From NCBI RefSeq assembly GCF_024502345.1, contig NZ_JALDNN010000001.1: a stretch of DNA of 64,000 nucleotides, one strand, 5' to 3'. This DNA comes from Escherichia coli. GTDB lineage: Bacteria; Pseudomonadota; Gammaproteobacteria; Enterobacterales; Enterobacteriaceae. Below, one piece after another: positions 12,523 through 45,238 of this stretch. The notes under the pieces are model-generated. The model saw nothing but the letters and a program-made list of their open reading frames with translations. It searched no databases and had not been told where the DNA came from. Numbering within the stretch: position 1 is the stretch's first letter; every line of letters starts with the position of its first letter. The position numbers were made by a program, and so were the translations under genes.

Positions 12523-12779
12523 TCTAAAATCCTCGGAGATGTGATCTGCCCGGCATTAAACCGCACAGATATAAAAGTGAAAAAGGGGGCCATATGCAGG
12601 CCCCCTAACCAAACGTGTACTACCTGGTCTATAAGGGCTCTCCCCCTTCATATTTCGCGCCGCAGATGCGTTATCTTCGCTCGCTCATCCCGGTCACTTA
12701 CTGATGTAAGCTCCCGGGAATTCTCGAGCTTGCCGCCTTTCTGCAACTCGAACTATTTTGGGGGAGTTATCAAGCCTTA

Positions 12780-13727
<948 letters not shown>

Positions 13728-20356: not shown

Positions 20357-21781
20357 TTACTGCATTAACAGGTAGATGGTGCTGTCGCCGCGCTGAATGT
20401 TCAGTGCCAGCACAGACGGTTTGCTGTCGAGAACTTTACGCAGTTCAGCGATGTTTTTCACTGCCTGCTGGTTCGCGCCAATAATCACATCACCTTTCTT
20501 CAGGCCGATCTGCGCAGCCGGAGTGCCCGTTTTCACGTTGTTCACTACCACGCCCTGATCTTTGCCTTTGTTGCTCATTTCAGCACCTTCAATGCCGTTG
20601 AAGATGGAGCTGGAATCAACCTGATTCTGGCTGCTCTGCTGCAGTTCCAGATTCACGTTGACCTGCTTACCGTCGCGCAGCAAGCCCAGGGTCAGTTTGC
20701 TGCCCACCGGCATAGTACCCACCTGAGCACGCAGTGCGGCAAAGCTGCTGATTGGCTTACCGTTCAGTGAGGTGATCACATCACCCGCTTTAATGCCCGC
20801 TTTTGCAGCGGAGGAATTAGGCAGAACCTGGCTTACGAAAGCACCGCGCTGGGTGTCAACTTTCATCGCTTTCGCCAGTTCGGAATTCAGCTCAGTCCCC
20901 ATAATACCCAGCTCACCGCGTTTCACCTGGCCGTATTCCACCATCTGCGAGGTCAGGTTTTTCACCATGTTGCTCGGGATAGCAAAACCGATACCGATGT
21001 TGCCGCCGTCCGGTGCGAGGATCGCGGTGTTGATACCGATCAGTTCGCCGTTCAGGTTAACCAGCGCACCACCGGAGTTACCACGGTTGATCGCTGCATC
21101 GGTCTGGATGAAGTTTTCGTAGTTTTCGGCATTCAGGCCGCTACGCCCCAGCGCAGAGACAATCCCGGAAGTTACCGTCTCTCCCAGGCCAAACGGGTTA
21201 CCAATCGCTACGGTGTAATCACCCACGCGCAGTGCATCAGAATCCGCCATCTTAATTGCGGTCAGGTTTTTCGGGTTCTGGATCTGAATCAGCGCGATAT
21301 CAGAGCGCGGATCTTTGCCAACCATCTTCGCGTCGAACTTACGACCATCGCTCAGCTGGACTTTAATCACCGTCGCGTTATCAACAACGTGGTTGTTGGT
21401 GACGACATAGCCTTTATCGGCATCAATGATGACGCCGGAACCCAGCGCCATGAATTTCTGTTGCTGGCCGCCGCCATTACCGCCCTGGCCCCCCTGGCAG
21501 AACGGAGAGCTCTGGAACGGTGAACCTTCCTGGCAGAACGGAGAATCATCACCGAAGAACTGCTGGAAATTACGCGGCATACGCGGCGTATTAACGGTTG
21601 TGCTACCTTCTACGTTAATGCTGACCACTGAAGGCATCACCTTTTCGAGCATCGGTGCAAGGCTTGGCATCTGCTGGGCTGTCGTTGCTGAAGAAGTCTC
21701 AGCCGCCGTTGCAGAGAGCGGAGATAACGCCAAACCTAAACTCAGAGCCAGTGCACTCAGTGCTAATGTGTTTTTTTTCAT
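20357..21781 (-). CDS. degP: periplasmic serine endoprotease/chaperone DegP (HtrA)
   Basis: 474-aa ORF with signal peptide, trypsin-like catalytic motif GNSGGAL and two PDZ regions. Confidence 0.97.
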   Translation of the reverse strand: MKKNTLALSALALSLGLALSPLSATAAETSSATTAQQMPSLAPMLEKVMPSVVSINVEGSTTVNTPRMPRNFQQFFGDDSPFCQEGSPFQSSPFCQGGQGGNGGGQQQKFMALGSGVIIDADKGYVVTNNHVVDNATVIKVQLSDGRKFDAKMVGKDPRSDIALIQIQNPKNLTAIKMADSDALRVGDYTVAIGNPFGLGETVTSGIVSALGRSGLNAENYENFIQTDAAINRGNSGGALVNLNGELIGINTAILAPDGGNIGIGFAIPSNMVKNLTSQMVEYGQVKRGELGIMGTELNSELAKAMKVDTQRGAFVSQVLPNSSAAKAGIKAGDVITSLNGKPISSFAALRAQVGTMPVGSKLTLGLLRDGKQVNVNLELQQSSQNQVDSSSIFNGIEGAEMSNKGKDQGVVVNNVKTGTPAAQIGLKKGDVIIGANQQAVKNIAELRKVLDSKPSVLALNIQRGDSTIYLLMQ

Positions 21782-21826
21782 GTATTTCAGTCTCGATTAA
21801 CAGATAACGCAAAATTGCTGTGTTCT

Positions 21827-41883: not shown

Positions 41884-42339
41884 ATGCAAGAAGGGCAAAA
41901 CCGTAAAACATCGTCCCTGAGTATTCTCGCCATCGCTGGGGTGGAACCATATCAGGAGAAGCCGGGCGAAGAGTATATGAATGAAGCCCAGCTGGCGCAC
42001 TTCCGTCGTATTCTGGAAGCATGGCGTAATCAACTCAGGGATGAAGTCGATCGCACCGTTACACATATGCAGGATGAAGCAGCCAACTTCCCGGACCCGG
42101 TAGACCGTGCAGCCCAGGAAGAAGAGTTCAGCCTCGAACTGCGTAACCGCGATCGCGAGCGTAAGCTGATCAAAAAGATCGAGAAGACGCTGAAAAAAGT
42201 GGAAGACGAAGATTTCGGCTACTGCGAATCCTGCGGTGTTGAAATTGGTATTCGCCGTCTGGAAGCGCGCCCGACAGCCGATCTGTGCATCGACTGCAAA
42301 ACGCTGGCTGAAATTCGCGAAAAACAGATGGCTGGCTAA
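41884..42339 (+). CDS. dksA: RNA polymerase-binding transcription factor DksA
   Basis: 151-aa product from the ATG at 41884 ([15 protein letters not shown]…); C4 zinc finger [25 protein letters not shown]. Confidence 0.97.
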
Positions 42340-42395: not shown

Positions 42396-43302
42396 GTTCA
42401 AAGAGATGACAGACACACAGTATATTGGCCGCTTCGCCCCCTCTCCTTCCGGCGAGCTTCATTTTGGCTCTCTGATCGCCGCGCTCGGCAGCTATTTGCA
42501 GGCTCGCGCCCGGCAAGGTCGCTGGCTGGTACGCATAGAAGATATCGACCCGCCTCGTGAAGTTCCCGGTGCCGCAGAAACTATCCTGCGCCAGCTGGAA
42601 CATTACGGTCTGCACTGGGACGGCGATGTTCTCTGGCAATCGCAACGTCACGACGCCTATCGTGAAGCACTCGCCTGGTTACATGAACAAGGACTAAGTT
42701 ATTACTGCACCTGTACGCGTGCGCGTATTCAAAGCATTGGCGGTATTTACGACGGTCATTGCCGGGTGTTGCATCATGGACCAGACAATGCCGCAGTGCG
42801 TATCCGCCAGCAGCATCCGGTCACGCAATTTACTGACCAGCTGCGCGGCATTATTCACGCCGACGAAAAACTGGTACGGGAAGATTTTATCATTCATCGC
42901 CGTGATGGGTTGTTCGCCTACAACCTGGCTGTTGTGGTTGATGATCATTTCCAGGGCGTTACAGAAATAGTGCGTGGGGCTGATCTGATTGAACCAACAG
43001 TAAGGCAAATCTCGCTGTACCAGCTTTTTGGCTGGAAAGTGCCAGATTACATTCATCTGCCGCTGGCGCTTAATCCACAAGGCGCTAAACTTTCCAAGCA
43101 GAATCATGCGCCTGCGTTGCCGAAAGGCGATCCACGCCCGGTACTAATCGCGGCACTTCAATTTCTGGGGCAGCAGGCAGAAGCACACTGGCAGGATTTC
43201 AGCGTCGAGCAAATCCTTCAGTCAGCCGTCAAAAACTGGACGCTGACCGCCGTGCCCGAGTCGGCAATTGTAAATTCAACATTCTCAAATGCGTCATGCT
43301 GA
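42376..43302 (+). CDS. gluQ: glutamyl-Q tRNA(Asp) synthetase GluQ (YadB)
   Basis: Truncated GluRS-like catalytic domain without an anticodon-binding domain; longest ORF is 308 aa from 42376; a downstream ATG at 42406 ([10 protein letters not shown]…, 298 aa) lies outside the dksA terminator and may be the real start. Confidence 0.88.
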
Positions 43303-43361
43303 GCTATGATTAGCCGCTATTTTTTTGTCCTGAATGATGTTTGACACTACCGAGGTGTACT

Positions 43362-44759
43362 ATTTTTACCCGAGTCGCTAATTTTTGCCGCAAGGTGCTA
43401 AGCCGCGAGGAAAGCGAGGCTGAACAGGCAGTCGCCCGTCCACAGGTGACGGTGATCCCGCGTGAGCAGCATGCTATTTCCCGCAAAGATATCAGTGAAA
43501 ATGCCCTGAAGGTAATGTACAGGCTCAACAAAGCGGGATACGAAGCCTGGCTGGTTGGCGGCGGCGTGCGCGACCTGTTACTTGGCAAAAAGCCGAAAGA
43601 TTTTGACGTAACCACTAACGCCACGCCTGAGCAGGTGCGCAAACTGTTCCGTAACTGCCGCCTGGTGGGTCGCCGTTTCCGTCTGGCTCATGTAATGTTT
43701 GGCCCGGAGATTATCGAAGTTGCGACCTTCCGTGGACACCACGAAGGTAACGTCAGCGACCGCACGACCTCCCAACGCGGGCAAAACGGCATGTTGCTGC
43801 GCGACAACATTTTCGGCTCCATCGAAGAAGACGCCCAGCGCCGCGATTTCACTATCAACAGCCTCTATTACAGCGTAGCGGATTTTACCGTCCGTGATTA
43901 CGTTGGCGGTATGAAGGATCTGAAGGACGGCGTTATCCGTCTGATTGGTAACCCGGAAACGCGCTACCGTGAAGATCCGGTACGTATGCTGCGCGCGGTA
44001 CGTTTTGCCGCCAAATTGGGTATGCGCATCAGCCCGGAAACCGCAGAACCGATCCCTCGCCTCGCTACCCTGTTGAACGATATCCCACCGGCACGCCTGT
44101 TTGAAGAATCGCTTAAACTGCTACAAGCGGGCTACGGTTACGATACCTATAAGCTGTTGTGTGAATATCATCTGTTCCAGCCGCTGTTCCCGACCATTAC
44201 CCGCTACTTCACGGAAAATGGCGACAGCCCGATGGAGCGGATCATTGAACAGGTGCTGAAGAATACCGATACGCGTATCCATAACGATATGCGCGTGAAC
44301 CCGGCGTTCCTGTTTGCCGCCATGTTCTGGTACCCACTGCTGGAGACGGCACAGAAGATTGCCCAGGAAAGCGGCCTGACCTATCACGACGCTTTCGCGC
44401 TGGCGATGAACGACGTGCTGGACGAAGCCTGCCGTTCACTGGCAATCCCGAAACGTCTGACGACGTTAACCCGCGATATCTGGCAGTTGCAGTTGCGTAT
44501 GTCCCGTCGTCAGGGTAAACGCGCATGGAAACTGCTGGAGCATCCTAAGTTCCGTGCGGCTTATGACCTGTTGGCCTTGCGAGCTGAAGTTGAACGTAAC
44601 GCTGAACTGCAGCGTCTGGTGAAATGGTGGGGTGAGTTCCAGGTTTCCGCGCCACCAGATCAAAAAGGGATGCTTAACGAGTTGGATGAAGAGCCGTCAC
44701 CGCGTCGCCGTACTCGTCGTCCACGCAAACGCGCACCGCGTCGTGAGGGTACCGCATGA
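43362..44759 (+). CDS. pcnB: poly(A) polymerase I, AUU (ATT) initiation codon
   Basis: 465-aa product if initiation is at ATT 43362..43364 ([11 protein letters not shown]…), the start reported for K-12 pcnB; the ORF track begins at an upstream TTG (43341); stop overlaps the folK start by 4 nt. Confidence 0.88.
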
Positions 44760-45238
44760 CAGTTGCGTATATTGCCATAGGCAGCAATCTGGCCTCTCCG
44801 CTGGAGCAGGTCAATGCTGCCCTGAAAGCATTAGGCGATATCCCTGAAAGCCACATTCTTACCGTTTCTTCGTTTTACCGCACCCCACCGCTGGGGCCGC
44901 AAGATCAACCCGATTACTTAAACGCAGCCGTGGCGCTGGAAACAACACTTGCGCCTGAAGAATTACTTAATCACACACAGCAAATAGAGTTGCAGCAAGG
45001 TCGCGTTCGTAAAGCAGAACGCTGGGGACCGCGCATACTCGATCTTGATATCATGTTGTTTGGTAATGAAACCATTAATACCGAACGACTCACCGTCCCG
45101 CATTACGATATGAAGAATCGCGGCTTTATGCTGTGGCCGCTGTTTGAGATTGCCCCGGAACTCGTGTTTCCTGATGGGGAGACATTACGTGAAATACTCA
45201 CTTCGCTAGCAGTACTACAACCTGCCATCTGGTATTAG
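44756..45238 (+). CDS. folK: 6-hydroxymethyl-7,8-dihydropterin pyrophosphokinase FolK, variant C-terminus
   Basis: 160-aa ORF matching HPPK through about residue 140 (…[13 protein letters not shown]) and then diverging from the K-12 tail as recalled. Confidence 0.9.

Follow-up and report, generated by a model that had tools for sequence, protein, structure and literature searches.

Where translation of pcnB begins is the question raised by this locus, whose start is annotated inconsistently across public databases. The same protein is held in public collections in three forms, of 472 aa (from a TTG), 465 aa (from an ATT) and 454 aa (from a GTG at codon 12), each on at least 1000 contigs. The 472-aa and 454-aa versions, which are output of gene callers restricted to ATG, GTG and TTG, are both widespread. 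We analyzed the start region within the window, the whole stretch of 64,000 nucleotides of Escherichia coli DNA to which all coordinates refer. The segment 43362–44759 (+ strand), comprising 465 codons and a stop, is very probably the E. coli gene for poly(A) polymerase I (PAP I), pcnB, initiated at an AUU codon that is positioned by a Shine-Dalgarno sequence and whose inefficiency limits PAP I. The practical relevance lies in annotation, the true start being ATT.

The pcnB frame, read on the + strand, is closed on its 5′ side by an in-frame TGA (43335–43337), with TGT as the next codon. Between this stop and the ATT (43362–43364), a TTG (43341–43343) located seven codons 5′ of the ATT is the sole canonical in-frame start, with ATG and GTG absent. 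The ATT, which forms the eighth codon of the open reading frame (ORF) beginning at TTG, shares its frame and stands directly before the conserved N-terminus, as confirmed from the sequence and the ORF list, and is followed by TTT ACC CGA GTC GCT AAT TTT TGC CGC AAG as codons 2–11. The sequence-only reading had placed both codons in this way and had further claimed that no ATG or GTG lies in frame near the conserved start; this holds for the upstream side and fails downstream, where a GTG (43395–43397, codon 12, hereafter GTG12) lies 11 codons 3′ of the ATT. The frame contains two more GTGs, at 43446 and 43452, and reaches its first ATG at codon 52 (43515–43517, ATG52), probably the historical Liu & Parkinson 1989 start. 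None of the downstream GTGs, nor ATG52, could encode the conserved PcnB N-terminus, and the window's only canonical start upstream of it is the TTG at −7, which has no Shine-Dalgarno sequence and is not conserved.

A Shine-Dalgarno sequence, GAGGTG (43352–43357), precedes the ATT with a 4-nt spacer. The duplex energy of pairing with 16S rRNA before the ATT is −7.2 kcal/mol, against a background in which 4.4% of window positions reach −6 kcal/mol and 1.1% reach −7.5 kcal/mol. Among the tested starts, such pairing is found only at the ATT, with values of +0.4 kcal/mol for TTG, +1.9 kcal/mol for GTG12 and +0.2 kcal/mol for ATG52; a Shine-Dalgarno sequence at functional spacing is therefore a property of the ATT and of none of the other three.

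The encoded protein is assigned by family models and by gene context. The NCBIfam PcnB equivalog NF008634 scores 996.4 bits against a cut-off of 702, with model positions 1–468 of 469 aligned to residues 8–471 of the TTG ORF, placing model position 1 at the ATT codon. PF01743, PF12627 and PF12626, representing the PolyA_pol head, the RNA-binding domain and the arginine-rich C-terminus, all score above their gathering thresholds. The + strand genes around the start are dksA, gluQRS, pcnB, folK and a yadN-type fimbrial gene, and the order gluQRS-pcnB-folK matches that in the K-12 and O121 RefSeq records. Adjacency of pcnB and folK (HPPK) is kept even in distant homologues. According to the ORF list and RefSeq, folK (44756–45238, + strand) begins within the end of pcnB, its start overlapping the pcnB stop by 4 nt. 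This ATGA overlap (44756–44759) is an arrangement typical of translational coupling.

Upstream, gluQRS (tRNA glutamyl-Q34 synthetase; 42406–43302, + strand, from RefSeq mapping and the ORF list) terminates with TGA 43300–43302, and a consensus scan places a sigma-70 promoter-like site, TTCTCA-17 nt-TATGAT (43282–43310, + strand), astride its end. The −10 block TATGATTAGCCGC is conserved in 78 of the 80 species compared below, at a variable distance of 42–183 nt from the ATT. This site is probably the published pB, the major pcnB promoter (PMC2939334). The E. coli YD786 record (NZ_CP013112.1) matches in two separate places, with the break at ~43294, which suggests that the pB-like promoter at the gluQRS end has been interrupted by an insertion or rearrangement. 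Another candidate, TTGACA (43341–43346), is a perfect −35 hexamer and was rejected, since inspection gave no acceptable −10 at 16–18 nt and the scan reported no promoter there. A search for an intrinsic terminator between gluQRS and pcnB found none, and short direct repeats (CTATTTTT in two copies; ATTTTTACC/ATTTTTGCC), at 8–11 nt and two copies only, are probably due to chance.

Comparison with the K-12 5′ region, as the sequence-only reading had proposed, reveals complete identity: 43250–43450 matches E. coli K-12 MG1655 at 201 of 201 bases (100%). A 501-base stretch across the pcnB start likewise has a 100% match in RM8352, an O121 strain of E. coli, and matches of ≥95% identity in 5424 of 5426 complete E. 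coli genomes. In both MG1655 and RM8352, the RefSeq/PGAP coding sequence begins at the ATT (RefSeq locus position 2713, corresponding to window position 43362) and yields the same 465-aa protein, WP_010723084.1. The 30-base stretch from the Shine-Dalgarno region to codon 5 (43348–43377) is exact in 5420/5426 complete genomes; the earlier remark that the non-canonical start is preserved in this strain is thus correct, yet true of essentially every E. coli.

The background given in the sequence-only reading, that E. coli pcnB initiates at AUU and that this keeps expression low, is borne out by published statements on K-12. Initiation at AUU, limiting PAP I synthesis, is attributed to Binns & Masters 2002 in PMC2939334, PMC3561954, PMC4447247, PMC5499595, PMC9410913 and bioRxiv 10.1101/063800. 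Confirmed AUU-initiated E. coli genes number two, infC and pcnB (bioRxiv 10.1101/063800, PMC5499595). PMC3561954 is itself inconsistent, with UUG as the start in the introduction, on the authority of earlier work, and AUU in the discussion, and may be one origin of confusion over the start codon. Our literature search found no mention of pcnB start-site evidence in the main text of ribosome-profiling or N-terminomics papers, and the TRAINSPOTTER N-terminomics supplements contain neither a pcnB entry nor an FTRVANF or other PcnB peptide.

An ATT codon is by itself not beyond chance; its significance comes from its conservation. Scanning one genome per species yielded 80 Enterobacteriaceae loci with 86–99% protein identity, and in every one of the 80 the aligned codon, which opens the conserved protein, is again ATT and so conserved in its own right. 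GAGGTG at −10 to −5 is equally invariant, with fixed spacing (80/80). When metagenomes were scanned with GAGGTG-N7-TTTACCCGAGTCGCTAATTT, a pattern that leaves the start codon free, ATT occurred in at least 120 matches, comprising every one of the 120 matches listed, in 60 distinct sequence contexts. Among the 19 conserved Ile columns of pcnB, codon 1 alone is fixed, and the other 18 alternate between ATT, ATC and ATA.

Variation on the two sides of the ATT differs in kind. Upstream of about −12, the 80 species exhibit divergence, indels and variation that is equal across the three phases, and 43 of them have no canonical in-frame start (ATG, GTG or TTG) between the upstream stop and the ATT. 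Codons 2–11 contain five variable columns, all of them third positions and all synonymous, with 53 minor alleles, none of which falls on position 1 or 2; there are only five because the block is nearly invariant, and the periodicity rests on these few columns, such that part of the conservation could act at the level of RNA rather than protein. The pattern reads as non-coding 5′ of the ATT and coding 3′ of it. Together, the comparative data independently point to the ATT over TTG, GTG12 and ATG52, and provide an experiment-independent confirmation that the ATT and its Shine-Dalgarno sequence are fixed across Enterobacteriaceae. AUU initiation, as the sequence-only reading had it, is accordingly backed by the K-12 identity, the RefSeq start, the NCBIfam model, the literature and this comparison.

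The same data weigh on the other starts that the frame offers. Translation from TTG 43341 would produce the 472-aa protein and make the ATT an ordinary internal Ile codon, a role at odds with its fixation, since none of the 18 conserved internal Ile codons is fixed. No other canonical start of the open frame precedes TTG, and the pB-like promoter would put it within the transcript; it nevertheless has no Shine-Dalgarno pairing, occurs at −7 in only 26 of the 80 species, and belongs to an upstream segment with indels and no codon periodicity. The deposition of the 472-aa form on its many contigs counts in its favor, whereas NF008634 leaves out the seven residues beginning at TTG, and RefSeq and the discussion of PMC3561954 use AUU. 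We regard a TTG start as highly improbable. Still less credible is translation from GTG12, yielding the 454-aa protein and turning the block from ATT to AAG into an untranslated regulatory leader. Here the invariance of GTG12 (80/80 species) and of the block before it, which makes RNA-level conservation plausible, is offset by the absence of Shine-Dalgarno pairing and by the character of the changes that do occur: codons 2–11 vary only synonymously at third positions, and are therefore translated, so that GTG12 cannot be the start. The changes that the block shows in more distant relatives are those expected of a protein (FSQIANFCRK, FTRVSNFYRH), and homologues at 44–48% identity open the homologous N-terminal segment with an ATG or GTG of their own. 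The 454-aa form is widely deposited and is a typical gene-caller output, whereas NF008634 includes the residues 5′ of GTG12.

A third proposal keeps the main start and adds a second one: besides the AUU product, a shorter isoform would arise from ATG52 on transcripts of the internal sigma-S promoter pS1, making this a case of dual initiation. PMC2939334 describes pS1 activity downstream of the ATT with a putative Shine-Dalgarno sequence and AUG, and two bands in anti-PAP I western blots, taken there to suggest a second, shorter isoform, although by the same account pS1 requires special conditions for activity in vivo. AAGG lies immediately 5′ of ATG 43515 and the nearby codons 41–44 are invariant at synonymous sites, whereas codon 52 is Leu in 57 of the 80 species, hence not a conserved start, and its product would be devoid of the 51 N-terminal residues. 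We rate a conditional short pS1 isoform in E. coli as unlikely, if less so than the TTG or GTG12 start; it is not the main product.

Three smaller observations concern other potential starts in the interval. In Salmonella enterica subsp. diarizonae and arizonae, the only two of the 80 representatives with this feature, an in-frame ATG at −7 (21 nt 5′ of the ATT) takes the place of the E. coli TTG, with no obvious Shine-Dalgarno sequence. An out-of-frame ATGATG (43334–43339) opens a 15-codon ORF to a TAA overlapping pcnB codons 6–7; it was rejected, as its ATGs are not conserved outside Escherichia and have no Shine-Dalgarno pairing. Also rejected was a mini-ORF that would run from 43355, where the Shine-Dalgarno sequence contains a GTG, to the same TAA: its codons 2–3 change non-synonymously (positions −4 to −1 vary), and its start has no Shine-Dalgarno pairing.

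The preferred AUU start extends somewhat beyond the 80-species set. GAGGTG-N4-ATT-TTT persists, ahead of codons that differ, in two relatives with protein identities of 62% and 67%, one in a 1.08-Mb genome (GCA_900699015.1) and one in a 5.0-Mb genome (GCA_014218195.1). In GCA_014218195.1, the pcnB homologue (601–2098 of the extracted locus) retains GAGGTG-N4-ATT and is called as two ORFs (316 and 150 aa), so that it may be frameshifted or a pseudogene. Three homologues at 44–48% identity, all adjoining folK, carry a GTG or ATG start at the homologous N-terminal segment, and inspection revealed no evident Shine-Dalgarno sequence before these starts. Because these more distant homologues use GTG or ATG, the pcnB ATT appears, from the two relatives at 62–67% and the three at 44–48%, to be clade-limited and not universal, in agreement with remarks in the literature (bioRxiv 10.1101/063800, PMC3561954). 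The canonical starts of the three distant homologues, with no evident Shine-Dalgarno sequence before them, hint that lineages differ in how they keep pcnB initiation weak.

In the mechanism that we propose, the Shine-Dalgarno GAGGUG would set AUU 43362, four bases 3′ of it, in place as the first pcnB codon, to be decoded by initiator tRNA. Initiation would be inefficient because AUU is a poor start codon and is discriminated against by IF3, restricting each cell to some tens of molecules of PAP I, which is toxic when overproduced. To this account the present analysis contributes the K-12 identity, the invariance of the ATT and Shine-Dalgarno sequence, and the anatomy of the site, and the literature contributes AUU initiation, its low efficiency, IF3 discrimination and toxicity. 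Reporter constructs place AUU initiation at ~1–2% of AUG (bioRxiv 10.1101/063800), IF3 discriminates against AUU in general (PMC4447247, PMC9410913), and PAP I is present at ~30–50 molecules per cell, its overproduction being toxic via tRNA polyadenylation (PMC3561954). By analogy with infC, pcnB translation would respond to IF3, with output rising as IF3 fidelity or level falls.

Three known systems frame this reading. E. coli K-12 pcnB (Binns & Masters 2002, Mol Microbiol 44:1287, as cited in the papers above) has the same 43250–43450 region, ATT, GAGGTG, WP_010723084.1 and gluQRS-pcnB-folK order; with no difference in the start region, the present strain carries this very allele. E. coli infC, encoding IF3, is like pcnB in having a confirmed AUU start that limits expression and is subject to IF3 discrimination. 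It differs in that its AUU serves negative autoregulation by its own product and that AUU or AUC is reported across bacteria (PMC5499595), whereas in pcnB the IF3 dependence is drawn from analogy and the ATT is clade-limited. Enterococcus faecalis ebpA (PMC4447247) likewise has a rare ATT start that attenuates expression and is mis-annotated at a canonical codon in databases, but its product, the pilus tip protein of a Gram-positive host, is unrelated. The finding of an AUU start here is correct, already known and ordinary for any E. coli genome, since such initiation of pcnB has been shown experimentally for E. coli K-12; this start is a textbook oddity, and its reappearance in another E. coli strain adds nothing new.

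The only new item, absent from the descriptions in the literature that we consulted, is a synonymous freeze of the first codons. Across the 80 species, synonymous variation in codons 2–9 (43365–43388) is near zero, the mean synonymous minor-allele fraction being 0.008 where the gene averages 0.284; no other 8-codon window in pcnB is as low. A run of nine synonymously frozen codons (codons 1–9) was never reached in 20,000 column shuffles, and the segment from the Shine-Dalgarno sequence to codon 9 (43352–43388) includes an invariant rare CGA codon. As controls in the same genomes, gluQRS and folK have no 5′ synonymous constraint, and dksA has one. The near-total synonymous conservation of codons 2–9 suggests a constraint on the initiation region at the level of RNA, and the frozen first nine codons offer a minor lead for the study of how weak start codons are tuned.

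A tentative extension of this idea, which we consider rather doubtful, is that 43352–43388 forms an extended RNA-level control element for AUU initiation, either a weak hairpin sequestering the Shine-Dalgarno sequence or a site for a candidate protein or small RNA tuning poly(A) polymerase levels. In the candidate weak hairpin, the Shine-Dalgarno GGUG would pair with UACC at +5 to +8, leaving the AUU in a 9-nt loop. Folding of 43318–43420 is not more stable than that of shuffled sequences (z = +1.0). The RNAalifold consensus is weak (−11.7 kcal/mol), with two pairs in which a one-sided change keeps pairing, and the alignment contains no compensatory (both-sides) changes in the hairpin because the region is almost invariant. 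Rfam has no match in 43200–43500 even at E ≤ 1; its matches above gathering scores lie elsewhere in the window, comprising the CssrA sRNA (12585–12694, − strand), t44 RNA (13533–13619, − strand) and the HtrA 5′ UTR thermometer (21776–21821, − strand).

Two further patches of low synonymous diversity were observed. Codons 41–44 of pcnB (43482–43493, CGC AAA GAT ATC) are invariant or nearly so in the 80 species and, lying just 5′ of the non-conserved ATG 43515, may relate to the published internal promoter pS1. In dksA, codons 1–21 (41884–41946) have almost no synonymous variation, with a fraction of 0.002 in codons 2–9 versus 0.089 in codons 13–40 across 60 species.
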